UHGV virus genome: UHGV-0143838
Strand: one strand, 5' to 3'
DNA: 49,897 bases
Origin: a virus
Numbering within the stretch: position 1 is the first letter of the stretch; every line of letters starts with the position of its first letter. The translations under genes were made by a program, and so were the position numbers. Shown here in pieces: positions 1-49,515 of this stretch. A model generated the notes under the pieces. It was not told where the DNA came from and did no database searches. It saw only the letters and a program-made list of their open reading frames with translations.

Positions 1-211
1 ATAGGATTCAATTCTTTTAGCGTCTCGTCATATCGTTTAAAACGATCAAAAACAATCTTATGATAGTTTTTATCTATCATAAATAGATATTCGATCGATT
101 GTAACAATTAATTACCGATCGATACCACCTGTTCAATCGTCAAAATCTATCAATAATCAATTATCGATCTTTTATATCGATCATTTTATTGAGATCTGTT
201 CACAAAATGAT

Positions 212-595
212 ATGCTTCGCGTAGGTCGTTCAGTAGGATCTGGTGAGGTGAGTATGGAAGTCATCAACAAGGAAACCGACAGCATTCAAACAAAGTCTAA
301 CAGTGCTGTTTTATCATATATCTATGGACAGTCTGGATTCACCATTGTTCTGAATAAATGTTTTGTGCGGCTATTCAATAATGCATCTGGCATTAATGCC
401 TTATATGGCTATAACCAAATCCGGGAAATCAATTACACATTACCAAACACTGATTTCGGTGAGGCAGAGATCTGTATTCTCACATCTGGAAGCAACAATG
501 CTTTATGGAAGTTTACTGTTAAGTCGGAAGACAATGAAAGAGTTTGTGAGAGATGGATTAGCATATTTGATGAGCAGATATTTAACAGTATATAA
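212..595 (+). CDS. hypothetical protein
   Basis: ORF 127 aa; better RBS (GGTGAGG) precedes the internal ATG at 254, so the true start may be 254; GATC-rich region immediately upstream. Confidence 0.45.
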   Translation: MLRVGRSVGSGEVSMEVINKETDSIQTKSNSAVLSYIYGQSGFTIVLNKCFVRLFNNASGINALYGYNQIREINYTLPNTDFGEAEICILTSGSNNALWKFTVKSEDNERVCERWISIFDEQIFNSI

Positions 596-708
596 AATAA
601 AACATAAAATGTTAATTCTTTTATAAAGGAAACCGCAAATATATTTGCTTTTTTAGAAATTAATATTTAATTATATACACATGTAATATTTAATAATGAG
701 GTTTATTT

Positions 709-1179
709 ATGTCTGGAAAAAATCCATTCTGGAATTATGATTATAATGCAGCACAACGCAACAGAGAGATAGTAGATTCATATCAACAGGCTAATGAGGC
801 CAGACTGAACTCTCAGCAAGCTCAGTTTGAAGCATCAATGGCAAACGATGAAGTTAATCATCTACAATTGCGCCTTAACCAAACTATATCCAGTCATAAG
901 AAGGTAGTGGACAGGTATGAACAACAGTTGGAAGGATTTAAAAATAATTTTTTCCGCGTTGCATTACACAAGAATATTCTTTATAGAACCATCAGCAAAC
1001 TGCAGGAGGAATGGCCCGACAAAAAGGAATTTATCCTTGACGAAATGCAAAGACAACGCGATTTATGTAATCAACAGGATTATAAAGAAAGATGGTGGAA
1101 CGCTATCAAAAGTAATAACCTTGCTGATGACTATCTTGATTTCCCGTTCCCTGAGCGTAAGGTCAAGAACAAAGCATAA
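709..1179 (+). CDS. hypothetical coiled-coil protein
   Basis: ORF 156 aa with RBS (TGAGGT) upstream; Q/E/R-rich heptad-like sequence; co-directional with neighbours. Confidence 0.5.
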   Translation: MSGKNPFWNYDYNAAQRNREIVDSYQQANEARLNSQQAQFEASMANDEVNHLQLRLNQTISSHKKVVDRYEQQLEGFKNNFFRVALHKNILYRTISKLQEEWPDKKEFILDEMQRQRDLCNQQDYKERWWNAIKSNNLADDYLDFPFPERKVKNKA

Positions 1180-1325
1180 TATATGGTGATTATTATGTAA
1201 TAACAAATACACAAGATGAAACTAAGCATTTCTTCATAACGACTATTGATTTCGACAAGACACTACCCTGTCATGTCTCCTACAGGCACCCCCATATCAA
1301 CCATTCACTTTATGGAATCATCCGC

Positions 1326-1883
1326 ATGTCTCATGAGAAAAAACAGTATATAAAATCATATAAGCATACACTGGTTGAGTATAGTAAACCCACAGAAGAG
1401 CTGAGCAGGCAAGATATAGAAAATAGTGATGATGATCTCAAAAATCGGCAAGCAAAAGCTATTTTGTTAGATTTTTCACTAATCTTTATTTTAGTGCCTT
1501 TTATTGGCTTCTTGTTTTATGTGATTATTAAATTTATGAACTCAACACAGCCACGCATGATTTCGCCACCGGACAACTATGTTGACGTAGGGATCTTTTT
1601 GTTTATAGGAACTGTTATATGGCTACTTTATGTAATTAGAGGTAGATCATTTAAAAATTTAAATGATACAATCTTATTTACTGGAACAGCTATTGGCTTT
1701 GTATTATTCTTTCACAAAGATGTTACAATCATAGATCATAACAACGCTACATGGATTTTTGGTCAAATAGTTTTAGCGAGTTGTTCTGTTGGCAAAGCTC
1801 TTATTGCATTTACAGAATTTATTGTAGAACGAGTTGGCGAAACTAAAAAATCAGTAGAAAAGAAAACTTATCCCCACCACTAA
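1326..1883 (+). CDS. hypothetical integral membrane protein (about 4 TM segments)
   Basis: ORF 185 aa; four long hydrophobic stretches (e.g. AILLDFSLIFILVPFIGFLFYVII, VGIFLFIGTVIWLLYVI). Confidence 0.5.
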   Translation: MSHEKKQYIKSYKHTLVEYSKPTEELSRQDIENSDDDLKNRQAKAILLDFSLIFILVPFIGFLFYVIIKFMNSTQPRMISPPDNYVDVGIFLFIGTVIWLLYVIRGRSFKNLNDTILFTGTAIGFVLFFHKDVTIIDHNNATWIFGQIVLASCSVGKALIAFTEFIVERVGETKKSVEKKTYPHH

Positions 1884-2365
1884 CCTTACATACATCAGAT
1901 ATCTTAGCTAAGACCTAATCTGATAGTTACCGGTTATTTATACAGGTGTCTGTCAGATTACATCTGGTTTAAATTTCGCTCAAAGTATTTGTTATAATTC
2001 TTTCTTATTCACTTTTTCATTATCACACATCATTAAGAGAATCGTTAAAAAAACCCCACACTTACAAAATGAATAAAAACTTAATAACATTATTACCGCT
2101 GCCCATAGGTACTTCAATGAGTTAAAAGAAAACCTCAGAAAAAATTTCAGAAATAGCATCACCGTTTCATATTTTTTAGACATACTCTTATCCTTTCATT
2201 ATACTTTTATATACATCAATATTGAATAGATGTAATCTACTGTTGATTCCTATACGTATAGCCCATATATAGATTAATGTCTATCAAACACGATTTTTTA
2301 TTTATTGTGATTTTATAAACTTAATGACCAGTACCACCATTAACCCATAAAAATTATGAATAATG

Positions 2366-2596
2366 CTATTTTGCCAAGATTTTATTTTTCTCAAAACGTT
2401 TAAAAAGCCATGATGATAAAACATCACTAATAAAGAACAAAGGAACGAGAACTAAATATTTATATTTGTTCGTGATACATGAATCAAACAAAATAATAAT
2501 CAGGATAAGAAAAATAAAATCCCCCCTCAGTTTATTCATTACACTGTCAAACACTTCATAAAATCTCATGATCTTTATATCCATATTATTTCTCAT
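2366..2596 (-). CDS. hypothetical small membrane protein
   Basis: ORF 76 aa with two hydrophobic segments; very AT-rich, could be spurious. Confidence 0.25.
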   Translation of the reverse strand: MRNNMDIKIMRFYEVFDSVMNKLRGDFIFLILIIILFDSCITNKYKYLVLVPLFFISDVLSSWLFKRFEKNKILAK

Positions 2597-2686
2597 CCTT
2601 TTATATACGTCTAATTCAATATATTGACAAGAATATAAAACTACCTTATTGCTTCATTTATATAAACAAAAACATGGGGCTAAAAG

Positions 2687-3115
2687 ATGGGAAGAACATT
2701 TAGAGAAAAAACAATCAACATATTACAAATAATCACTCTGTTGACATTCTATTGGCTAATTTATAATTTTTGTCTCGACCACCTGTATGCTAATGCCTCA
2801 AAAGGCCCTGCAAGCATTATTACTGATACATATTTTCCAGCTGCATTATTAGCTCATGTTGGGCTATTGTTTCTTTTCATCCCATACTATTTAATGTGGA
2901 AGGCGAAGGAGAAATTTAACTGGAGAGGAATCTTCAATGCTCATCGAAACTATCCTTTCACAGTCTTTATTAGTTATACTTCAGCTACCATAACATATAT
3001 GATAGCTGATAAAGCATCTTTCTATGATTCTGGTATAAATACTCTATACTTGATTCAAATTATTGCCTTTATTTTTGTTACGATTATTTATCTGCATTCT
3101 TCCAACAAAGATTAA
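2687..3115 (+). CDS. hypothetical integral membrane protein
   Basis: ORF 142 aa with multiple hydrophobic helices; 3' end overlaps the convergent 3044-4210 ORF. Confidence 0.4.
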   Translation: MGRTFREKTINILQIITLLTFYWLIYNFCLDHLYANASKGPASIITDTYFPAALLAHVGLLFLFIPYYLMWKAKEKFNWRGIFNAHRNYPFTVFISYTSATITYMIADKASFYDSGINTLYLIQIIAFIFVTIIYLHSSNKD

Positions 3116-4210
3116 TATAATACCATATACGACAATAACAGCTAGAACATAAAATATTATACCTACCCGTGAAATATCGGAATTAAACCATTTGAACATT
3201 TTCATTAAAGAATAAACAACTCGATCAAGGGACGATGTTTTCTCCCTTACCTCCATACATGACAGCTTGCACTCACTGTCATCTATCTGGTTAAGAATAC
3301 TCATTGCCTCATTTCGCTGTCCTTTTCCCAAGAAATGTCTGGCTAATATAAGTCGTTTGTCCACAGAAGATATATCATCCTGAATTAATCCATATAATAT
3401 ATGGATATCTTTTTGACTCAGTTGTTTCTTGTTTTCTCTATCTTCATAGTAAAAATCGAGGACGAGTGGGTTGTCTGACATACTTTTATCGATAGATTTG
3501 ACAACAGCATCCCATCGATGACTGTCCATATCGGCTAAAGATAATATAGGGTATAACTTCTCAATGACACGTTCCCCTACAGGAGAATAATAAAATCTAT
3601 GATGTGTTTTTTTATAAAATGAGTCTGATATATTGGCTATAACACCTGTATTCTCATTTTCTGTAGTTTCCCAATAAAATCTCATTCCATATTTTTCACT
3701 AATAAATGATAGAAAAGCATGACGTGGAGCATAAACTATTTCTAACTTTTTACTGAATGCTCTTGCAGCATCAAACATAAGATATACGTTCAGATCACAG
3801 TCAGAAAAGTGATTAGCATAAGCCTTAGCTACTGTAGCTGATGGTTTATAATAAAAGTTAGCTCCTAATATTTTGTTTGCACAGTCCAAGAAATTTTCAG
3901 TAGTATCATCAATCCTACATGTATCTTTTACTTTCTTTAAAAAATTATTTATAGCCCCATATGCTTTACGCGCTTCGTTAGAATTAATGATACCATTTTG
4001 CTCATCCATCCTGACGAGGCGATGAGTCAGGTTTAATGGGTCATAGTCCGCAAATACATCCGGGGTATGTTCAAATCGTTCGGCACGCGTTGCACTTTTA
4101 TCTTTGGTCAGAGTTATAGATACGAATGAGATAACAAGCACAGGAAGAATAATTAACGCCACAGGCATTATTAATTTTCGCAAAGTTAATAATTTGATAC
4201 GCAATAACAT
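3044..4210 (-). CDS. hypothetical membrane-anchored protein (N- and C-terminal TM segments)
   Basis: ORF 388 aa; N-terminal hydrophobic anchor (PVALIILPVLVISFVSI) and C-terminal TM (VGIIFYVLAVIVVYGIILIFVG); no family recognised. Confidence 0.5.
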   Translation of the reverse strand: MLLRIKLLTLRKLIMPVALIILPVLVISFVSITLTKDKSATRAERFEHTPDVFADYDPLNLTHRLVRMDEQNGIINSNEARKAYGAINNFLKKVKDTCRIDDTTENFLDCANKILGANFYYKPSATVAKAYANHFSDCDLNVYLMFDAARAFSKKLEIVYAPRHAFLSFISEKYGMRFYWETTENENTGVIANISDSFYKKTHHRFYYSPVGERVIEKLYPILSLADMDSHRWDAVVKSIDKSMSDNPLVLDFYYEDRENKKQLSQKDIHILYGLIQDDISSVDKRLILARHFLGKGQRNEAMSILNQIDDSECKLSCMEVREKTSSLDRVVYSLMKMFKWFNSDISRVGIIFYVLAVIVVYGIILIFVGRMQINNRNKNKGNNLNQV

Positions 4211-4330
4211 TTAATCATCCACTGATAATAGAAAAGCAAATGTTAACACTAAATCAATCAAGCAGTAACTTATAATTGGCTTAACTACGAATCTTTACAT
4301 TGTTATTACCCATCCAAGTAACTCATTAAA

Positions 4331-4350
4331 TTAGTTAGTTAGTTAGTTAG
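4331..4350. repeat. tetranucleotide microsatellite (TTAG)5
   Basis: Five perfect tandem TTAG units read directly; intergenic, about 120 bp upstream of the 3044-4210 start codon. Confidence 0.9.
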
Positions 4351-4511
4351 TTTTATTTTGAAAATTAATTTTAGATTTACTAACTCTACAAACTTGTATA
4401 CTTATCAATAAAATAGAATGTGCATAACAAAAACAAAATACAAACAGCAAAAATTTAATAACAAATAGATGAATATTATGCATTCTCATATAATCTAATA
4501 CAGATCTAAGC

Positions 4512-5768
4512 TTAGTTAGTTGCTGCCTGCGTTGATTTTGTGGCATTGATTTTCAGATTATTCAACATCACCTTATCGACAGGTTGTAGTTGCTGTCCTA
4601 ATAGGGCTGCTAATAAAATATTTGTGTCTTCTGTTCTTTCTATTAGAAGCATCTGTAATCTTAAATCAATGGCCTGCATTCTTGCCTGCTCATGTGCGGT
4701 TTCTTTTTCATCTGTACTGCTGATCTTGACCTGCCATGCATCAGCACCAGTAGTATCCGCATAGCGAGAATAGATCTCATATCTCAACATTTCCCATTCC
4801 GAAGGTTTAGACGGGAACTCTGCTCCGGGGAATAATGTCGCATACTTGGTTTTCACAGACGCATCAGTCCACGCCTGACTTGCTCCTGCTGTAGAACCAA
4901 GTCCTGAGCCGATATTTACCCCTCTTGAGTTTACTGATACATCACCAGATTTCTTTATTGCCAGAATAGAATCAACAGCATTAGTTCCCGCTGTGCTTCT
5001 GGCAACAAAACTTGAGAATGCTGACAGGTATTCGCGTCCTTCTTTCGTATCTTCAAGACTCCTGTCGTTTAGCTGCTGTAGCGGTAAATTACCAATCAGA
5101 TTTCGCTTAGCAGCATCAGCCACTTTCATCTGTTTAACATCATAAGATTGGTTTGAAACTTTATTCCCCTGAGCATCAGATATGGATAACGGTGGTGTGG
5201 TGAGTGAGGTAGCAGATTTATCTTTATCAGCATATGCACCAATAGAACTACATCCACCTCTGTTGTATTTCACATCCTCGTCAGAACAGACTTCAATTGA
5301 GACTCGGCCCATCACGTTATTTTTAGCCTCATTTATACCGGTGCTCGCTCCCGTAAACATTTTCACACTATTTTCAGCTAAAGCAGCTTTAGCTGAGCTT
5401 GTGTTTGATCCTGCCGACCCTCTACCTCCTGCTGCTGTAGCTTCCTCACAAGCATTAGCATCAGGAATTCGCTTAAGGATATTTTGCATTCTTTGCTCCT
5501 GAATAGCTTGGTTTGCATTGCTTATAACAGAGTTCTTTTGATTCTCATTAGCAGTAATATTAGCCTGTGCAAGTTTGTCATTCATTGAGACTAATGTCTC
5601 AATCATTCCATTTCCCATAGATTGAGGGTATGCCCCCATTACGTAAGGTGTCAATACTTCTTCCGTGACGGGCCAGACAGCAAAAGCTGTATTTGAATAC
5701 AGAACAGAAAAACACAAAATCGAAGTCGCTGCTATTCTTTTTATTTTGAAATTACCATGACTCATCAC
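4512..5768 (-). CDS. hypothetical secreted protein (Sec signal peptide)
   Basis: ORF 418 aa; N-terminal signal-like sequence ending AFA; RBS AAGGGAG precedes ATG at 5765; Ala/Ser/Gly/Asn-rich mature region. Confidence 0.55.
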   Translation of the reverse strand: MMSHGNFKIKRIAATSILCFSVLYSNTAFAVWPVTEEVLTPYVMGAYPQSMGNGMIETLVSMNDKLAQANITANENQKNSVISNANQAIQEQRMQNILKRIPDANACEEATAAGGRGSAGSNTSSAKAALAENSVKMFTGASTGINEAKNNVMGRVSIEVCSDEDVKYNRGGCSSIGAYADKDKSATSLTTPPLSISDAQGNKVSNQSYDVKQMKVADAAKRNLIGNLPLQQLNDRSLEDTKEGREYLSAFSSFVARSTAGTNAVDSILAIKKSGDVSVNSRGVNIGSGLGSTAGASQAWTDASVKTKYATLFPGAEFPSKPSEWEMLRYEIYSRYADTTGADAWQVKISSTDEKETAHEQARMQAIDLRLQMLLIERTEDTNILLAALLGQQLQPVDKVMLNNLKINATKSTQAATN

Positions 5769-5975
5769 ACACTCCCTTTAATTCATTACATTCTTTATTA
5801 ATTAATAAATTAAAAATGAATTGTCAATTGTTCTGACTATGCTTAATGATCCCTTATCGTGTTTAAAAAGCATAGATTTTAAAACCAACTCAGATTAATA
5901 TATTCACTCCTGAATCATCATTAAGAGAATTGCCATGTCGATTTATAATATTTAAACAAATTCGGATGGAGTTTT

Positions 5976-6353
5976 TTAGCGACGAAAAGAATCAGGGCGT
6001 TTCCATTCAAACACTGCAGCATGTCTTGCTTTAGTTCTTTCACTTTTAATCTGATTAGCTTTACGCTGAGAACATATTTGTTCACGAGCAACACCCAGAA
6101 CTTTTCTTCTCTCTTCTTTGGTAAGATTCTTACCTTTCACTTTCATTGCCTCACACACTGCATCATCAAGAAATTTCTTTTCCGATACTGTCACGCTTCT
6201 TAAACATCCATGCTTATTCATATTTTTATCCATTTGTTTTTTCTCTTTTTTAATCCCGAGATCTGATTTTTTGTTTCCATCTTCAATATTGGTTCCATTA
6301 AAACTTCCCTCGTTATTATTTGTTACAGAACCTTCTTCAGTTTCGTTTTTCAT
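5976..6353 (-). CDS. hypothetical lysine-rich protein
   Basis: ORF 125 aa, highly basic C-terminus; no family recognised. Confidence 0.4.
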   Translation of the reverse strand: MKNETEEGSVTNNNEGSFNGTNIEDGNKKSDLGIKKEKKQMDKNMNKHGCLRSVTVSEKKFLDDAVCEAMKVKGKNLTKEERRKVLGVAREQICSQRKANQIKSERTKARHAAVFEWKRPDSFRR

Positions 6354-7326
6354 TTTTCTGACTCTTTATTATGTAAGTTATCTATTTAATACAATTAAAA
6401 TTTTGTTTTTTCAAATTAACTCGTTTTTTAAAACCATTTAAAATGCATATTTTCACAAATCACTTTAGATTTATATTTTTTCTGTACTAGTTTTACTATT
6501 TAATTTATTTTAAAAGATTTAGGGTTTTAGAGGGAACTCCGTCAGGAGTAGTATGGTTTTTCTAGAGCTTCGCCTCTCCTAATCCGCATATTAAAGTTTC
6601 AAAACAATCTCATGATTTTCAAATTTTATACACGTAATAGGACAAGACGCTTCTCATGCTATGACTTAGAATTGCAATACGTTTCCATATTGCGACACCC
6701 TTCTGCACTCCCATAGACAACATCATAGCTATAAAAACATTTTCTCGTTTTGCTAAAGAAAATTACACTGCTGTTTTTATAAGCCTTAGATGTGCGCTTC
6801 GAGTTGATGTTACGCAGACTCCCCGCTTTGGCATCGACAATAACCTTGAGAATGAATCAAACACTTTCGCTCCTACCTTCTCAGACCCGTACAATCAGGT
6901 TTAACGTTATTGCTTTTGAGAACTAGATTAGTTTTTGGAAATGGTATTTGACAGACTTGTAAAAAGTTGAGATTTAGATTTGACAAATATGGAAAGATTA
7001 TTTAATACTTTATTATATTTGTAGTCATGTTATCTGGTTAACTGATTACGAGGCTTCAAAAGTCGGCAAAACTTTTTTAGTCCTTAAAAAGTCAACTTTG
7101 ATAAGTTGGCTTTTTTTGTATCTTCATTCTGTTTACATCCAAATATTTCACTTGTCAAACAAAACAGTTCTTAAATACTATAATAAATTATATTCATCCA
7201 AAATGATGACCCCGAACTTTATTGTTATCTTCTCATTAAGAGCACAACCAGTAGTTGTTTAACTAACAAGTATCGTTAATATTCACAAAGCTTATTTATT
7301 GGCACCAACGTAAAAAAGTAGTATAA

Positions 7327-7842
7327 GTGAAGGATCAGACATTAAATGGAGTGACCGATATGGATGCTGGATTTATTTTACCTCAAGAAAAACAACAGGT
7401 TCTTGATGAAATAAACAGATGGCTTAACACAGTCTATCCCTACAAAAAACCACCTGCACATCTTTGTGATCCGATTGATAGGGCCAGTAAATTTTTCCGT
7501 ATTGATGTTCACAGGAAAAAATTCAGTATTTATCTTAGACTTGGAAAAACATGGGCATCATCTCAGAATAAATCTATTGTCATTGCTAAACTCTGTTTTG
7601 AAAAAGAACGTTCTGGTTATGGCTCAGCGTTGCTGAAATGCCTTGCGAAAATAGCAGAAAAATATAATTATGAAAATATTGCTATCGAGTCAGTCAATGA
7701 AAAAAGTAGATCATTTGCGTTGAAATTTGGTTTTTCAGAATATCAAAACAAAAATGATTATATCATTACAACTGAAAAACTTACTACTATCCTTAATAAA
7801 CTGCCTCCCCCCTTATCTTTGAGTCGAATTCATGTGTCATAG
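7327..7842 (+). CDS. GNAT-family N-acetyltransferase (putative)
   Basis: ORF 171 aa (GTG start; ATG at 7360 possible); GNAT-like motif region RSGYGSALLKCLAKIAEKY...SFALKFGFSE. Confidence 0.5.
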   Translation: MKDQTLNGVTDMDAGFILPQEKQQVLDEINRWLNTVYPYKKPPAHLCDPIDRASKFFRIDVHRKKFSIYLRLGKTWASSQNKSIVIAKLCFEKERSGYGSALLKCLAKIAEKYNYENIAIESVNEKSRSFALKFGFSEYQNKNDYIITTEKLTTILNKLPPPLSLSRIHVS

Positions 7843-7924
7843 TATTATTATTTTTTTCAAACAAGGTCCTATACCTATGACGAAATATAATAATATTTTC
7901 ATATGATTTTAAAATAAAAAGGAG

Positions 7925-8662
7925 TTGCTGATGCTAACAATTGAAGTAGAAACAGCAAAGTTGACTGTTGGAAACAGTGAATTTTTAATCGAAATACCTA
8001 AATCATTATATGAAGTGATTTCAAGTCAAAATAAAAAGGACCAATTAACAACGATAAAAAATAATGATGCAGAAAAAATAGAGTATTTCTTAAGAGATAA
8101 GTTGTATTATGACACAAGGCCGTCAAGTAAAAGACAAATGGATTACGTAATAGCAATAGCTGAAAAACTAAAGATAAAAATCAATAAAAAAACGCTCGAA
8201 AATACATCCAGTGCGAGTGCCTTTATTGATAAGCATAAATACGAATTTGATAAAAAAGTGGAAGAGGAACATCAAGCATGGATTGAGTATAAAAAGAGTG
8301 ATGAATATAAAATTCTTCAAAAAGTTGAAAGTGCAATAAAAAGACATTTTATAAGATATGGCACAACAAGAAAAAAATTACTTGCACATCAGATGATTGA
8401 ATCTGGCTTATCAATAAATGATATTGCAGATAAAATAGGCGTTACCACAACCACTATCAATAAATATTTAGCTGAAGTGGTAGATATAACTAACCGATCC
8501 ATAGCAAATGAAAGTTCATGGATGATATTTCATTATGTTCTATCAAAGATGGTTTTCTCAAATAAGGAAAATCTAACACCAAGTGAATGGAGAGATACTA
8601 TTATAGCCTTGACCATGAAAAACAGATGGTATGAAGAAACTTGGTTTTTTACAGAAGAATAA
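7925..8662 (+). CDS. hypothetical protein with helix-turn-helix-like segment
   Basis: ORF 245 aa; HTH-like stretch LSINDIADKIGVTTTTINKYL; directly downstream of the GNAT gene. Confidence 0.45.
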   Translation: MLMLTIEVETAKLTVGNSEFLIEIPKSLYEVISSQNKKDQLTTIKNNDAEKIEYFLRDKLYYDTRPSSKRQMDYVIAIAEKLKIKINKKTLENTSSASAFIDKHKYEFDKKVEEEHQAWIEYKKSDEYKILQKVESAIKRHFIRYGTTRKKLLAHQMIESGLSINDIADKIGVTTTTINKYLAEVVDITNRSIANESSWMIFHYVLSKMVFSNKENLTPSEWRDTIIALTMKNRWYEETWFFTEE

Positions 8663-8788
8663 ACATCCCTTGATACATTGTTTATATTTCAAAAAAGGCT
8701 ATGGCGACATTTTACTTTTGCCATAACCATTTCAATATTGCTTGTAAGTAATCATATAAGATGATTTTTATTCTAAATAATAATTAAT

Positions 8789-8816
8789 ACTAAAGAGGAC
8801 CGAAGTCCTCTTTAGT
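8789..8816. terminator. bidirectional hairpin between convergent genes
   Basis: Perfect 12-bp inverted repeat ACTAAAGAGGAC-cgaa-GTCCTCTTTAGT flanked by A/T-rich sequence; lies at the 3' end of the 8818-11532 gene. Confidence 0.55.
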
Positions 8817-8817
8817 A

Positions 8818-18799: not shown

Positions 18800-18862
18800 C
18801 CGCTACAGCATATCCGGGCTTCACTGTTCTCAAGATAACAGGCCCGGAAAATATTCGATTAT

Positions 18863-19243
18863 TCATCCAAGACTATCCCAGTCTGGCAGGTTGTTAACGA
18901 CCTTTCGCCACCAATGATACGCAGCCATAAGAACACCAAAACAAATACCTGCTACGACGCTTGAGACAAATGCAGTGCCCGGTTGTATCCCCGTATCCTT
19001 CCAAGTAAAAAACCACATACAGATCCCCCATGCCGGACCAAACCATCCACCCATCAACAAAGTGATTTGCCAGAATGAGGCAAAAGGTAGCGGTGGTATC
19101 TTGAGTCCAGCTTTCCATGCGAGGTGTAGCAAAGGAGGGGCATAATTACTTCGCCACATCTTCTTGCTTTCCATGATGGCAATAGCGTGTTTCTTTTTAG
19201 CTTCAAAGCCCATACGGTTCCCTCCAGCTCCACCTTTACTCAT
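18863..19243 (-). CDS. hypothetical membrane protein
   Basis: ORF 126 aa with 2-3 hydrophobic Trp-rich segments. Confidence 0.45.
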   Translation of the reverse strand: MSKGGAGGNRMGFEAKKKHAIAIMESKKMWRSNYAPPLLHLAWKAGLKIPPLPFASFWQITLLMGGWFGPAWGICMWFFTWKDTGIQPGTAFVSSVVAGICFGVLMAAYHWWRKVVNNLPDWDSLG

Positions 19244-19317
19244 CTATCGATAAAAAGCCACAATAGACAATAATGATTATCAATTCCATGTATGTAAGTC
19301 AAAAATAACTCAAATAG

Positions 19318-19560
19318 TCATTCCTTTAGATCTTCTGGTGAAACCCGGTCACATGCCATTTTCTCAAGCATTCTTTGTAATCTTTTCATTTTCAACTTAC
19401 GCGCTTTTTTCTCACCAATCTCCTGATAGTATTCTTCACGACGTTCGTTGACCACGCTCCTGAAATTTTTCAAAAGCTGTTCAAGTGTTTTGATGTCAGT
19501 AGTTGCGGCTTCCGCTTGGATTTTTTTATACATATACATCACATGAAATTCATCAATCAT
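19318..19560 (-). CDS. hnsT: truncated H-NS-like protein (H-NST-like; oligomerisation domain only)
   Basis: 80 aa; LEQLLKNFRSVVNERREE matches the H-NS N-terminal dimerisation region ([19 protein letters not shown]); no C-terminal DNA-binding domain. Confidence 0.7.
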   Translation of the reverse strand: MIDEFHVMYMYKKIQAEAATTDIKTLEQLLKNFRSVVNERREEYYQEIGEKKARKLKMKRLQRMLEKMACDRVSPEDLKE

Positions 19561-19633
19561 TTTTTTGCTCCTTGGAAAGACAAATAAGATTTGTTATCAG
19601 CCCCAAGAAGGGGCCGATAGACGTCAGAATATA

Positions 19634-19930
19634 TCAGCATATTGATTCCGCCAGAACAGTGTAGTGCATTTTGGCTAATGCCTGCCTAACCTCTTTAAAA
19701 TCCACCTCAGATAGTTTTTCAGCCGCGTTCTTTTTCCATGCTTTTTTCAGAAGATGCTTTTCAGCATTTCTCATCGCCAGATCGATTAGCTTACAAACAA
19801 ACTCATGATCCATTACATGCGTTATAATCATATTGCTGGTCGTTTTATCCTTTGAGTTAAAAAGCTCCGCATAGATATGCAAGGACACAACATAGAAGAT
19901 TTCAGTGTTTTTATTTTTAAATGTATTCAT
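19634..19930 (-). CDS. hypothetical protein
   Basis: ORF 98 aa, same strand as flanking island genes. Confidence 0.4.
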   Translation of the reverse strand: MNTFKNKNTEIFYVVSLHIYAELFNSKDKTTSNMIITHVMDHEFVCKLIDLAMRNAEKHLLKKAWKKNAAEKLSEVDFKEVRQALAKMHYTVLAESIC

Positions 19931-19982
19931 TTTTATTTCCTCTTTAGTTTAATATTGGAATAGCAAAATATTTGTATGAGCA

Positions 19983-20285
19983 TTAGCGGTATACACACTT
20001 ATAGACAATCCAAAGCTGACGAAGGTGTTGCTTTACCTTACAGTGGTTTACTTCTCCATAAATCCGATTCCTTTTGCCTTCTTCTGTGTCATCGTAAAAA
20101 TGATATCGCGTTTTTTTAATGATACTTTCCATAATGTCATTCATATTGTATTTATTGTTGAGAAAATAATAAAAATCATCTGGTGCATTCCGCCGTAATC
20201 CGTCCATATAGTTCCTGAAATAACATTCGGCTTGTTCAATAAACTCTTTTATCGTAATAAGTTCTATCTTCATATTTTTCTCCAT
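19983..20285 (-). CDS. hypothetical protein
   Basis: ORF 100 aa, same strand as flanking island genes. Confidence 0.4.
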   Translation of the reverse strand: MEKNMKIELITIKEFIEQAECYFRNYMDGLRRNAPDDFYYFLNNKYNMNDIMESIIKKTRYHFYDDTEEGKRNRIYGEVNHCKVKQHLRQLWIVYKCVYR

Positions 20286-20354
20286 TATTGTTTAGGGTAA
20301 TAAGATGCCCTGTGCGAACAGATATTTGTTCGACACGAGATCTTGTTTCTTTTT

Positions 20355-20645
20355 TTATGCAGCGTTCTGGCGTGAGTGTCGAATAGTCACTTCAATCCAT
20401 TCATCAATCTCACTTTCAACAAAAGCGACACACCTCGGACCTATTTTTACTCTGTCAGGAAAGTTTCCTTCCTTAATACGCTCATATAAAGTCGTGCGAC
20501 TAAATCCCACTCGATTTAAAACATCAGGAACGCGGATAAATCGTTTTACGCTGGTTTCAATATTTTCTTTCATTGTCTGCCCTCTATTATTGTAAGTAAT
20601 CTCTATGAGATTTCGCTTTTCTCTATGTTGTTTCGACGTGAACAA
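20355..20645 (-). CDS. alpA: AlpA-family phage/island transcriptional regulator
   Basis: Segment RFIRVPDVLNRVGFSRTTLYERIKEGNFPDRVKIGPRCVAFVESEIDEWI is the characteristic AlpA/CP4-57 regulatory HTH; likely true start at the internal Met (MKENIE..., about 20573). Confidence 0.75.
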   Translation of the reverse strand: MFTSKQHREKRNLIEITYNNRGQTMKENIETSVKRFIRVPDVLNRVGFSRTTLYERIKEGNFPDRVKIGPRCVAFVESEIDEWIEVTIRHSRQNAA

Positions 20646-20789
20646 TGATAGCGATTTTGCTTATGGTAATTTAGGGACGTTCAAAGAAGTTTTTTTTGAA
20701 AAATTCGAAGGGGCACGGATGGAAAGATAACGGTTAACACTGGATGCGATCACGTTCGCACGGAGCGAACGTAACCCTTTTTACTTGGC

Positions 20790-21683
20790 TTATTTTTTCT
20801 TATTCCTGTCGTCTTCTACATGCTTTTCAACAGGGGAGTCTTTCAAGTGATTGTTTTCCATCATGTAATCTTCAAGCGATTTCAGATAGCTCGCATCCGT
20901 CAGAAAAGCCATTGCTAACGGGTAGTCCGTTGCCTTTAGCATTCCTTCATCACGATCGTTGTCGCTGTCCTCGTGAAGCAGCGAGGAAATCAGTGAAAGC
21001 GGGATTTTAATGCCGTTATCTTCTCCCCAGAAGATCAGGTCCATCATCGGGATAAGACGATAATCAATAATTTTTCTGAATGTGCTTTTCCCAAAACGAT
21101 ACTCTCTTGGCGCTGGAGACTTCATCTTAAGCTGTCTCTTCCATCGGGGGATCAACACTTTCAGATGTTCAATGATCTCTTCGGTTGATGCTTCTTCCAG
21201 ATGAATATCGACAGTAATACGTGAAAGATTATTAAGGGATGTCTCTTTCAGATACTCGGACAGAAATTCAGACTGGCTTAACCCAGAGAGTTCAGGCGTG
21301 GCTTCGGTTAATGCCAGCGTTTTCGCATAAAATTGCGCGTGGCTTCGTGTCGTAGGATTTACTGCGTAGGTTCTGGCAAGCTCATGTCCAAGAGTAGCGG
21401 TATCACCACTGAAAAAGATTTCACCGCTGAGGATCTTGTTGCGGTAATCATCCAGCATTAATCGGTTAAAGGTAGGTATGGTGTTCCGGCTCAACAACAT
21501 TCTGTAAGCCAAGATGCGCCGCTCAACCTCAACATAAAAATGCTGTAAGGTGAGTTTCTCTATCGCCTCATAGCGTTCCACATCAAACCATGCTTCCAGT
21601 GCTTTCCTGATTTCACTTCTTTTCATCCATCCTCCAACAATCCATTTCCTTTGATATATCTTCACAGGATCCGTTTGGAACAA
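20790..21683 (-). CDS. hypothetical protein (not a recognisable integrase)
   Basis: ORF 297 aa adjacent to the tRNA fragment; I see no tyrosine-recombinase R..HxxR..Y signature. Confidence 0.5.
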   Translation of the reverse strand: MFQTDPVKIYQRKWIVGGWMKRSEIRKALEAWFDVERYEAIEKLTLQHFYVEVERRILAYRMLLSRNTIPTFNRLMLDDYRNKILSGEIFFSGDTATLGHELARTYAVNPTTRSHAQFYAKTLALTEATPELSGLSQSEFLSEYLKETSLNNLSRITVDIHLEEASTEEIIEHLKVLIPRWKRQLKMKSPAPREYRFGKSTFRKIIDYRLIPMMDLIFWGEDNGIKIPLSLISSLLHEDSDNDRDEGMLKATDYPLAMAFLTDASYLKSLEDYMMENNHLKDSPVEKHVEDDRNKKK

Positions 21684-21904
21684 TTGAAGTTCAACTGTTT
21701 TGTCATCAGAGACGGGGGAATGGCTAAGTTGTTGTTAAGAGTGTGAACTCGAGAGCATAAAAGTGGATGCCCGACGCGCGGCAAAATGGTAAAAAACAGC
21801 ATCAGTAGTAAGAAAAATTGAGCGAGAGAAAGGAATTTTAATGCAGGGATTTATGCATGACAAAATCAAAAATGCTTTGTAAGTGATTGATTTTGTTGAA
21901 TGAT

Positions 21905-21966
21905 TGGCGGAGAGAGGGGGATTTGAACCCCCGGTAGAGTTGCCCCTACTCCGGTTTTCGAGACCG
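21905..21966 (-). tRNA. partial tRNA-Ser(CGA) (3' 62 nt, serU-like): prophage attachment core, not a functional tRNA
   Basis: Minus strand reads CGGTCTCGAAAACCGGAGTAGGGGCAACTCTACCGGGGGTTCAAATCCCCCTCTCTCCGCCA: anticodon stem-loop (CGA), long variable arm, T-arm GGTTCAAATCC and acceptor end; the 5' half is absent. Confidence 0.8.
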
Positions 21967-22694
21967 ATGATACAGAGTCGAAAAATCAAAGAGTTAAAAA
22001 TTTTTCTTGGAATAAATGTCTTAAAATCGTACACGAAAAATCAATAAATTACATAACATTAAAGAAGAATATTCCAAGCCTTCTTGAGGCCACCACCTGT
22101 TTTCAGGTGTCATTCAGATGTGATTTACCCCAGATTGGGAAAGCACGCTTTTTTTTCTCAGCTTATTCCGTTTTGCCTGTGTGTTGAATAATTCCACTGC
22201 AGTTATATAAAATCAGTAACAGCTGGAAATCATTCAATACTCGCACTATCGAAAGTTCGCCAGCCAGCCGTGGCACGTTCTTGCATACGACGTGCTACGG
22301 TTTCATTTATCTCCGACCGGAAACCTCTTATACAAAGTCGATATGCCAACATCATAGATGATCGCCTACTGGTGGAACTTATATATAAAGCAATAATGAC
22401 CAAACTTTACAGGCGGAGAAGAGCCGCTTCTTTAAACTTTCCTCAATAACAGCATTACTTGTATAATGCATCAGTTCACAATAGAAAAATGCATACTGCT
22501 ATGTTGCCCGGATCATCACGGGCATTTTTTATCCACCCTACCACGACATATTCATACGCTGCCACACAGAACATTTCAATCCACCAGTATGTTTCCGGTG
22601 TTTCACTCTCAGCAACAAACAACAGGAGAACGCATAATCGCAGCATAAAATGCATGATGTAAGGAGCTTATATCGCTCCTTACATTAATATTAT

Positions 22695-25070
22695 TCACTG
22701 GCCAGACAGCGATGCCAGCATGAAATAATGCAGCTCATCATTCCTTACAGACATTATTTCACCAGCCTCCCTGACCAGCTTGCGCTCTCCGGTATCGTAT
22801 TCTTCCATTGTAAGGAGTCCGTCAGAACCAAGCTCCATACGAGTCCCGTAAACCACTTCATATTCCGCCGGATATTCATCACGACACAAAATACCGTAAT
22901 CAAAAGCGTCCAGCCCTTCCTCAGAGAAGACCTTCTGTACGTCCTGAGCAATCACTCCTACATGCCATCTGGCTGCGTTCCCTTTGCTGGACACTGCATC
23001 TCTGAAACGGAACCGACAGATATACCCGAGCAGCTTTCTGGCAACCCTTTTTTCTGCATCCGACAGAATTGTTTCGTCCTGTTTATGAGTCCGGTCTGAT
23101 GTACTGATACTTCCCGTAGCTGAATAAACCTGTGCGGGTCGCCATGAGGCATAACCGATCGAATACGTATTATCTGTATAAGGGCGGAGATTTCCTGATG
23201 AATCTATGCGCCATCTCTTTTCTCCTCCTGTGGCATTTGCATCCTGATTCGTTGCAAAATCAATCACTGTCGCTGACCTGAACACAGATGAACCACCGCC
23301 AATTACCAGCGTGTTATTCCCCTCTGATGCCTGTTGGTCAACTACCAGTATTTTATCCTGATTTTTACCTGAACCACTTTTCGAGGCAGCGATAATACGA
23401 TTAAACTGATCCTCACCATCGCTCTTTTGTGCGATGGTGATAACATTGGACCAGATTGCCTCTCTTTGTCGCTGAAAACCATATTCTCCGCTGTCTGTAG
23501 TGACAGCTTTATATTTTATTCCACCTTCAGCTGACTCCTGCGTTATATAGAATGTCTGGTTATTAGCATTCTTGATGAACACATAATTGTCAGCAGGAAT
23601 GTCATTTCCACTCAGATCTTTAATCGGTGTCGTGGTTGTATGCAGACAAAACCATTTCTGACTCACAGAACGCATATATGCCAGAATTTCAGACAGGGAT
23701 GTGAATACCGTCCCCAACACCGGGTTTACCAACCCCTGGGCACTACGGGGAAATGTTCCAATACTGGCATGAGACACATCAAACCCCGTGTACAACCAGG
23801 CTGCCTGACGAAAATCAATAGCATCTCTGCCAGTACTGAACTCTTTCATCAGAACAATTCCTTTCTGATAAGCCTGTGGTAACCCACGCTCCAGAAAGAT
23901 ATAAAGCGAATATATACTGCCGCCGTCGTCAGAAATACAAATTCCTTCGTTCTCAATGCGCGAAGGTGTAAAACCCTGCCTGGTAAGCACATCTATCATT
24001 TTTTGGGGATGAAGAATGGATTCCTGCTGCTTTACTCCATCCGGAGAAAAGACCTTAACCCCCTGAAACTGGTTAAATCCGGCTGATGCCCCAGTATTAA
24101 AATAGCCACCATAAGAACAGGCAATATAATCGTCTCCCACAGCAATTCCCTGACGTTTTGTGAAGCGTCTTGCATAGCTGTCTGTGCTTTCCGTGATATA
24201 TCCGGAATCATGCAACGGTAATGTGAATGTCCCTGTCCGACGAAACTGAAAATCATACACCGCAAATACTGTGCGGGTGATCAGGCCTCCCACTTCCGGT
24301 GCTGACTGTTCAACCACCCAGCGGTTTTTACGATAGCTGAACTGGTTGTAAACACCGACATCATGTTCATCAATTAACGGCAATACTGAACCAGAAATTG
24401 CCCCATCAAGCGAAAACTGTTTCAGTAATCCATTTTCTCCTGACATGAACAAACGTAATCCACCGTAATCCGTTGTCACCACAAGGCCTTCGCTGACAAC
24501 GCCACGACCTCCATTATCGACATAATAATATCCCTCATATTCGCCGGATGTTGTGTACTGAACTATAACGTTCCGTGTCTGCTTTGGCTCAACGGTATAA
24601 CTCAGATAGATTTTTTCTCCTGTCACCACAAATCCCTGTGGATACATATATTCCGCACCAGACTGAGCAGCCAGCACCGTATCGTAGTCCGGGAATAATA
24701 ACGGCAATTCCATTAAGACACTACGGGAATGGTTAGTGTACAGATTGTTCAATGAACCAGCTTTTACATCCTGTAACCCCAGATTTTCAAGAGCGCGTTC
24801 TACCGTGCCATCCGATTTGATATCGCCAAACGGATTTTTGCGGCTTAACAGCAGCGCACGAAGCGCGGTAAGCAGCTGGTCGTGCCGCGCCTTCTCCAGA
24901 CTGGCACCGGAGGCCTCCACCACGCTGCAAAGTTCTTCCTGCAACATGTCAAAGTAGTCATCATCCAGATCGGTGGCAGGCGTGCCGGTCTGGGGGTTAC
25001 CACGGGTAAAACCGTTCTTACCCGCGCCGAACTTATCCTTCTGCGCGGTTTTCGTGTCTATACGATGCAT
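22695..25070 (-). CDS. tail fibre protein with C-terminal intramolecular chaperone (peptidase S74-like) domain
   Basis: 791 aa; last gene of the tail module; C-terminal [17 protein letters not shown]...GLLTMEEYD resembles self-cleaving tail-fibre/endosialidase chaperone domains; no separate tail-fibre assembly gene follows. Confidence 0.8.
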
Positions 25071-48896: not shown

Positions 48897-49052
48897 TTAC
48901 TCCTCAGGTTCGTAAGCTGTGAAGACAGCGACCTCCGTCTGGCCGGTTCGGATTCGTACCTCGCAGAGGTCTTTCCTCGTTACCAGTGCCGTCACTATGA
49001 CGGTTAAACAGATGACGATCAGGGCGATTAACATCGCCTTTTGCTGCTTCAT
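48897..49052 (-). CDS. hokD: Hok/Gef-family type I toxin (HokD/RelF-like)
   Basis: 51 aa from the internal ATG: MKQQKAMLIALIVICLTVIVTALVTRKDLCEVRIRTGQTEVAVFTAYEPEE, the Hok/Gef consensus; the longer in-frame ORF to 49109 is probably leader. Confidence 0.85.
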   Translation of the reverse strand: MKQQKAMLIALIVICLTVIVTALVTRKDLCEVRIRTGQTEVAVFTAYEPEE

Positions 49053-49515
49053 AGCCTGCTTCTCCTTGCCTTTCGGCACGTAAGAGGCTAACCTACGTTT
49101 GTGAAGCATAGATTGGGCCTCAGATTAATGTTAAACGTCTTGCAGGACGCGTAATGTTAACTGGGGCTTTTCTCTATCTGCCGTTGGTGTTCATGCCCGA
49201 GGCAGATAGCCTCAAGCACCCGCAGCAATTCTACTTAACTCACGTCACCTCGCCAATATAAAATCAATCAGAGAGGTGATTCATAAGAACGATAACAAGA
49301 CAATAAATTGCCATTACTGCCGCAATAGCCAGCGCACATTTCAGAACCAGCACGATGACCTCCCATATTTGACGTACACGCGCATGGTTCAATATGTAGC
49401 AACCTATTTCTTGCTTCAATATAAAATCAGGTATTGTTGTATAACTATTTAACTAACTCCCTATCCCCACATCTCAGGCGCTCAACGTCTGTGTGCGGGG
49501 CGTTTTTTTAATACC

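Follow-up and report, generated by a model that had tools for sequence, protein, structure and literature searches.

The window, i.e., the whole 49,897-nucleotide stretch of DNA analyzed here, corresponds to the reverse strand of the Escherichia coli FDAARGOS_1259 chromosome (NZ_CP069559.1), with one mismatch in 45.6 kb; from window position 4331 onward, the coordinate in that record equals 2421722 minus the window coordinate. Near window 4331-4352, ~268 nt of FDAARGOS_1259 are missing from the window, with a 22-nt overlap at the breakpoint. This stretch and the single mismatch are the sole differences between the two sequences, and the former would be explained either by the window deriving from a very close relative or by an indel or repeat variant. 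The junction region described below is also present in four other complete genomes, with 99.9-100% identity.

In the window orientation, the locus starts with zinT, followed by a spacer of ~650 bp, the 14-nt sequence TGGCGGAGAGAGGG, and a gene encoding a 416-aa tyrosine recombinase. The genes of a genomic island come next, encoding PilV, pilin, TraD, MobQ, DotA/TraY, RepL, two H-NS paralogues, AlpA, and a DUF6387 protein, and they lead to a 62-nt fragment of the tRNA gene serU. Then comes a prophage with a tail fibre gene, tail and head genes of the SfV-like myovirus type, genes for lysis, hok/sok, and a lambdoid early region, ending in the DUF4224 and integrase genes; an intact serU gene, mtfA, asnT, and a yersiniabactin island form the right end of the locus. 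The whole makes a cluster of ~110 kb with three mobile elements around two tRNA genes: next to one another lie the yersiniabactin island at its asnT site, mtfA, serU, the prophage, and the serU island. The flanks of the locus correspond to L002 11860-14440 and L003 12700-13700. The yodB gene, located in K-12 between zinT and serU, is missing from the FDAARGOS_1259 locus. The features of the window are as follows:

1-21904, no strand: in-window part of a ~34-kb serU island variant (remainder left of the window, including MobQ, TraD, pilin, PilV, and the P4-like integrase)
18395-18799, plus strand: full-length H-NS paralogue, Hfp/H-NSB-like (Pfam Histone_HNS_N and Histone_HNS)
19318-19560, minus strand: truncated H-NS paralogue, H-NST-like, 80 aa (only Histone_HNS_N above the Pfam cutoff)
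20355-20573, minus strand: AlpA-family regulator, a candidate excision regulator (Pfam Phage_AlpA, E=9.5e-19)
20790-21626, minus strand: DUF6387 gene, of all island genes the nearest to the fragment (Pfam DUF6387, E=1.9e-52)
21905-21966, minus strand: displaced serU 3' fragment, nt 29-90 including CCA, the probable prophage attR core together with its bacterial side (62/62 to K-12)
21905-21918, minus strand: 14-nt repeat, serU nt 77-90 (TGGCGGAGAGAGGG on the plus strand), the probable tRNA-proximal att repeat of the island, within the fragment
21948-21966, minus strand: 19-nt interval, tRNA nt 29-47, that holds the phage strand-exchange point according to the allele pattern
21967-22295, no strand: P arm of the prophage attR, non-coding, common to different serU-integrating phages
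21967-49897, no strand: in-window part of a ~40.4-kb serU prophage (SfV-like myovirus structural genes, lambdoid lysis and early genes)
22695-25070, minus strand: tail-fibre ORF, the outermost prophage gene at the attR side (RefSeq tail fiber domain protein; Pfam Peptidase_S74)
49047-49221, minus strand: sok antitoxin RNA in the prophage early region, with hokD annotated alongside (Rfam RF01794, 113 bits)

A preliminary description of the window, made from the letters alone, had recognized at 21905-21966 the 3' part of a serU-type tRNA-Ser(CGA) gene without its 5' half. The minus-strand letters, CGGTCTCGAAAACCGGAGTAGGGGCAACTCTACCGGGGGTTCAAATCCCCCTCTCTCCGCCA, are indeed identical at 62 of 62 positions to nt 29-90 of the 90-nt K-12 serU gene encoding tRNA-Ser(CGA), and the 5' 28 nt are absent. 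Two details had to be corrected: the acceptor end, described as CCA-less, encodes the CCA at 21905-21907 (TGG), and the fragment starts not at the anticodon loop but 4 nt ahead of it, within the 5' strand of the anticodon stem. Identity stops exactly at 21966, because window 21967 mismatches serU nt 28. The fragment is present in a single copy in the window when up to three mismatches are allowed, and no match to it was obtained in 100 shuffles. ARAGORN detected no tRNA genes over the window, and Rfam returned no tRNA at the fragment either at the gathering threshold or at E<=1, as expected for a sequence deprived of the 5' 28 nt. The sub-threshold Rfam matches at this site were a tmRNA T-arm and a plastid family on the opposite strand, the latter suspected of lying opposite a plastid trnS gene. 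In KU052038, the identical 62 nt are annotated as a tRNA-Ser pseudogene.

The same description had placed an intact tRNA gene and an integrase beyond the right edge of the window, and both were found there in FDAARGOS_1259. Intact serU (record 2359350-2359439, window-equivalent 62283-62372) lies 12.4 kb beyond the edge in the orientation of the fragment, at a core-to-core distance of 40,378 bp. The predicted direct repeat is present, but the identity expected of the two copies is not complete: they agree at 60 of 62 positions, with nt 48 changed from A to G and nt 59 from U to C in the intact gene. Since nt 48 and 59 pair in the long variable arm (ARAGORN cloverleaf), the two substitutions constitute one compensatory exchange of an A-U for a G-C pair, the latter being that of the phage attP. 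The fragment carries the native A48-U59 allele at window 21947 and 21936.

Between the tRNA gene and the fragment, 52 nt off the serU 3' end, lies a 341-aa tyrosine recombinase ORF, located on the minus strand at 14493-15518 of the FDAARGOS_1259 extract (L002) and given as window-equivalent ~62400-63425. It contains the Pfam domains Phage_integrase (catalytic), Phage_int_M, and SAM-like, and its residues 1-313 align to residues 1-338 of lambda Int (PDB 1z1b) with E=5.9e-13. RefSeq labels the integrase of the FDAARGOS_1259 serU prophage as a "frameshifted" pseudogene. A frameshift was rejected: the ORF reads through 341 aa and is collinear with its homologues in ON470580 and ON470583, and we judge the label to be an annotation artefact on the basis of this comparison. 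The DUF4224 gene adjoins int, in the position of xis, and may encode the excisionase. The mtfA-serU-integrase junction is also present in E. coli O157:H7 strain 2571, with 99.0% match.

The preliminary description regarded the fragment as the footprint of an att core left by tRNA-targeted integration and proposed comparison with an empty-site genome. Such a site is available in K-12, where serU is unoccupied, and all four att sites were recovered. In attB of K-12, the yodB-side flank runs to gataaag and continues into full serU and the mtfA side; attB was seen in K-12 W3110 and in Nissle, the Nissle copy being associated with the island. In attL, the phage P' arm runs to gattgaattt, followed by serU nt 29-90, the host 5' 28 nt, and mtfA. 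In attR, i.e., in the window, the island end runs to gttgaatgat, followed by serU nt 29-90 and the phage P arm from atgatacagagtcg. With an exact-pattern scan, attP was located in three viral contigs of IMG/VR, where P' arm, core, and P arm follow one another without interruption. The only one of the three examined (L011, IMG/VR UViG_2531839668_000011) carries an ORF of the size of the 341-aa int on one side, and its sequence is 96.5% identical to the reconstructed attP over the 329 nt beyond the core. Beside its P arm, at 999-3011, lie three genes encoding NleG-family type III effectors; given that they adjoin a true attP, the int/att module would therefore also travel with effector-carrying lambdoid phages.

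Several other phage records that resembled attP sources were set aside. ON470580 and ON470583, which encode the same integrase, are prophage excerpts with host mtfA and asnT and thus represent attL. In phages ev099, mEp332, and PhiR70_1, sequence matching the core and the P arm is bordered on the opposite side by chromosomal DNA of the K-12 type; they contain not the attP of this integrase but a fossil serU attR composed of at least 278 nt of K-12-type flank, the 62-nt fragment with the host A-U allele, and the P arm (L009, ev099, LR597635, ~2223-2900; L008, mEp332, PV340541, ~2329-2585; also PhiR70_1, PV340577). In ev099, it lies ~2.4 kb downstream of an integrase gene, from which it is separated by IS remnants and an AraC-type gene, and these intervening genes are also those of mEp332. 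The fossil attR looks like host DNA that was caught by imprecise excision or recombination and then kept.

The compensatory pair separates the att sites with no exception: G48-C59 is present in attP (3/3) and attL (3/3), and A48-U59 in attB (2/2) and attR (7/7); among the seven attR copies are those of the species representatives of S. flexneri and E. coli and the fossil ones of the phages. It follows from this allele pattern that the 3' part of the working tRNA is phage-derived and that the fragment is the original 3' part of the host gene, and also that strand exchange took place 5' of nt 48. The resulting interval, 21948-21966, is the anticodon stem-loop, in which CGGT and ACCG form inverted stem halves around the loop CTCGAAA (window 21956-21962). 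Sites of the anticodon-centred attP class (PMC4383910) show this geometry, with a 7-nt loop between inverted stem halves, and by analogy with this class we infer that strands were most likely exchanged within the 7-nt anticodon loop.

The P arm of ~330 nt (to window ~22295) is kept in this prophage, in the real attP, and in a different, lambda-like siphovirus-type prophage located at this same site in CFSAN067215, and P-arm matches in other genomes reach window 22271-22305. The integrase and the att region behave as a module common to otherwise different phages. The octamer ATTCCAAG is present in three tandem copies in the P' arm, 76, 63, and 53 nt from the core and overlapping the int end, and in two copies in the P arm, one inverted (22006-22013) and one direct (22071-22078). 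This gives five copies in attP compared to three in the whole 49.9-kb window, two of those three being the P-arm copies, and the repeats are considered candidate arm-type Int sites. In addition, a diverged taagt[c/g]attga motif is found just beyond the tRNA 3' end in the native serU 3' flank, in the P' arm, and at the island end (window 21835-21904; L002 14441-14460; L005 3000-3016), so the att regions of both elements seem to bear a remnant of the serU 3' flank.

The DNA left of the fragment had been proposed to be a separate AT-rich island with AlpA and H-NS paralogues, and this view was borne out. GC content is 29-44% over most of 1-24000 compared to 50-59% over most of 25000-49000, and the AlpA gene and both H-NS paralogues, one full-length and one limited to the N-terminal domain, are located where listed above. 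The element has its own integrase, a 416-aa P4-like protein with Arm-DNA-bind_3, Phage_int_M, and Phage_integrase domains, which shares with the phage integrase only 24% identity over 130 aa. It is bounded on both sides by its own 14-nt repeats of the serU 3' end: one forms the last 14 nt of the fragment, and the distal TGGCGGAGAGAGGG (serU nt 77-90; record 2433941-2433954) adjoins the island integrase at the far end of the island. Beyond the distal 14-mer, the K-12 serU downstream flank resumes base for base.

The tRNA-proximal 4.3 kb (window 17691-21966) are 97.8% identical to the end of the serU island of E. coli Nissle 1917. In place of the Nissle tcpC/TIR/macro segment (L014 ~6199-8972), for which blastn gave no match in the island, the element carries ~14 kb of cargo (window ~185-14393). 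As tcpC is absent at the DNA level, the left element is, by sequence comparison, best described as a cargo variant of the published serU island. H-NST is known as a serU-island gene (PMC7074111). The preliminary description mentioned neither the published serU-island identity nor the island att repeat inside the fragment, nor the CCA. The cargo includes genes for a DotA/TraY-like protein, an Mrr-type restriction endonuclease, and a GNAT protein, and Pfam and PADLOC scans of this variable region gave almost no matches; a 388-aa protein (3044-4210, minus strand) and a 417-aa protein (4512-5765, minus strand) are among those with no match in either. Because the cargo occupies the slot of the TIR/NADase module, it may hold uncharacterized defence or virulence genes.

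Searches for the island outside the chromosome gave the following results. The predicted circular island junction had no match in two collections, one of genome contigs and one of viral contigs, and the right end of the island was found in no phage record, where matches were confined to the tRNA block of 62-71 nt. Klebsiella and Citrobacter phages MK416017, ON041214, OR327748, and PQ133623 match the 62-nt core and 9 nt of island-type flank. In a plasmid collection, substantial matches to the right part of the island were limited to two records, covering 83% and 56% of the query; at 4.8 Mb, one of them looks like a chromosome, and the other is 393 kb long.

Taken together, the fragment is the tail of E. 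coli serU displaced by a lambda-like prophage adjoining the known "serU island". With a probability of about 0.93, we consider that a lambda-Int-type prophage is inserted in serU and that the fragment forms its attR core, the final 14 nt of the fragment serving at the same time as the tRNA-proximal att repeat of the older serU island. This reading draws on direct observations, namely the four att sites, both integrases, the allele pattern, and counts in 5,426 complete E. coli genomes. According to the proposed mechanism, a P4-like integrase would first have recombined the island into the last 14 nt of serU, so that serU stayed intact upstream of the island and a 14-nt repeat came to lie beside zinT at the far end. 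A phage with serU nt 29-90 copied in its attP would later have recombined in the serU anticodon stem-loop. At attL, the host 5' 28 nt and the phage-borne 3' part would have been joined into a working chimeric serU beside the integrase, and at attR the native 3' 62 nt, with the island attached, would have been moved 40.4 kb away to become the fragment found in the window.

The order of arrival is the point at which another explanation comes closest, as it is unreadable from the sequence, both orders yielding the same junctions. The phage might have entered native serU first, and the island might later have used the 14-nt target on the displaced fragment rather than that on the regenerated tRNA gene. 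Since the T-arm and the 3' strand of the acceptor are complete in the fragment, it should remain a substrate for the island integrase; moreover, recipients of this kind exist, since at least 99 of the 5,426 genomes show native flank, fragment, and phage arm without the island. The counts nevertheless disfavor this order: in 339 genomes, the island end adjoins an intact native serU followed by mtfA, compared to 41 with the tandem of island end, fragment, and phage arm. Furthermore, at least two unrelated kinds of prophage border this same island end, the myovirus-type one described here and the lambda-like siphovirus-type one in CFSAN067215, which fits repeated phage arrivals better than islands repeatedly picking the fragment over the intact tRNA gene. 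We therefore regard the phage-first order as improbable, and the island was probably resident first and later received repeated phage integrations.

A far less probable explanation is that the whole 62-nt block is the island's own att site, with the prophage merely adjacent. The fragment does adjoin the island directly, and its last 14 nt are the island repeat, but the distal island repeat is just 14 nt long, island-only genomes have a complete serU and no fragment at the island end, and in attP the block runs directly into the phage arms; the proposal is refuted by these observations and by island-free copies of the block in KU052038, E. coli ECMA0423, and S. flexneri. Debris from deletion or rearrangement of a duplicated tRNA gene, or chance similarity, has nothing in its favor beyond the missing 5' half and is refuted by the 62/62 match, not reached in any of 100 shuffles, and by a breakpoint that falls on the same base across independent genomes, at the point where the attP/attB identity block ends.

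Under the preferred reading, with the prophage integrated in serU next to an older island, the fragment gives base-exact ends of two mobile elements, which is of value for annotation, and the working serU of the strain is a host-phage chimera bearing the phage allele. The compensatory base pair provides a natural marker that distinguishes host- from phage-derived tRNA halves and positions the exchange. Together with neighboring asnT, occupied by the yersiniabactin island, serU represents a stacked hot spot in extraintestinal E. coli. The 14-nt island att core is present in three direct copies in the chromosome, in the regenerated serU, in the fragment, and at the far end of the island, so the island integrase could in principle excise the island, the prophage, or a composite of ~74.5 kb. 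Such composite excision, or sloppy phage excision at attR that packages the AlpA/H-NST/Hfp end of the island, comparable to ev099 and mEp332 carrying native chromosomal flank, seems to us unlikely, with perhaps a slight chance of occurring; if true, it would couple the mobility of the island and the prophage.

The arrangement can be compared with four known systems. As in phage lambda, the integrase aligns across the N-terminal, core-binding, and catalytic regions of lambda Int, and the putative arm sites, three in tandem between core and int and two beyond the core, resemble P'1-3 and P1-2. A small gene lies beside int in the position of xis, as in lambda, but it encodes a DUF4224 protein and not Xis, and integration targets a tRNA gene, over an identity block of 62 nt as opposed to the 15-bp core of lambda.

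The serU gene is a listed phage insertion site (PMC8065619). Lambdoid prophages at serU, such as SerU-LTIIb (KU052038) and the serU prophage of O157:H7, share with the element described here the target gene and the same 62-nt displaced fragment. The O157:H7 element is presumably the one named CP-933U/Sp14. The present prophage differs from them in that its integrase/att module accompanies structural genes of the SfV-like myovirus type and in that the fragment adjoins the serU island and not the native yodB-side flank; the P arm of SerU-LTIIb has also diverged from the P arm found here.

First reported in 2005 (PMC7074111), the serU island of CFT073 and 536 comprises 22 kb with 38% GC and encodes H-NST, Hfp/H-NSB, and TcpC (PMC7074111, PMC7545054). 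Similarly to PAI-CFT073-serU, PAI VII536, and the Nissle 1917 island, the left element is located at the serU 3' end, has ~38% GC, and encodes H-NST, Hfp/H-NSB, AlpA, RepL, MobQ, TraD, pilin, and PilV. In contrast to the serU island, it measures ~34 kb instead of 22 kb, lacks tcpC, and is separated by a prophage from the functional tRNA gene.

Tandem accretion of two elements at one tRNA locus, as suggested in the preliminary description, corresponds to the tandem arrays of the Islander database, in which 125 tandems of two or more were recorded among 3,919 islands (PMC4383910). Of the features that mark a displaced fragment by the Islander criteria, the following were found here: an intact cognate tRNA gene on the same replicon and in the same orientation, an integrase between the two, an attP carrying the same tRNA segment, and an empty attB. 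The two members are the prophage with a 62-nt fragment and a lambda-like Int and the island with a 14-nt fragment and a P4-like Int. As in the Islander arrays (PMC4383910), one site is anticodon-centred and the other repeat extends from the T-stem 3' strand to the 3' end, and there is no essential difference from them. Apart from tcpC, missing from the island variant, and with the arm-type Int sites and the DUF4224 excisionase as candidates, the defining features tested were present. The arrangement is thus a clear but ordinary case of known biology, two mobile elements stacked at one tRNA gene, which leaves the current understanding of tRNA-targeted integration unchanged. Small additions are the compensatory-pair crossover marker, the arm-motif layout, the correction of the integrase "frameshift", and the fossil attR in free phage genomes.
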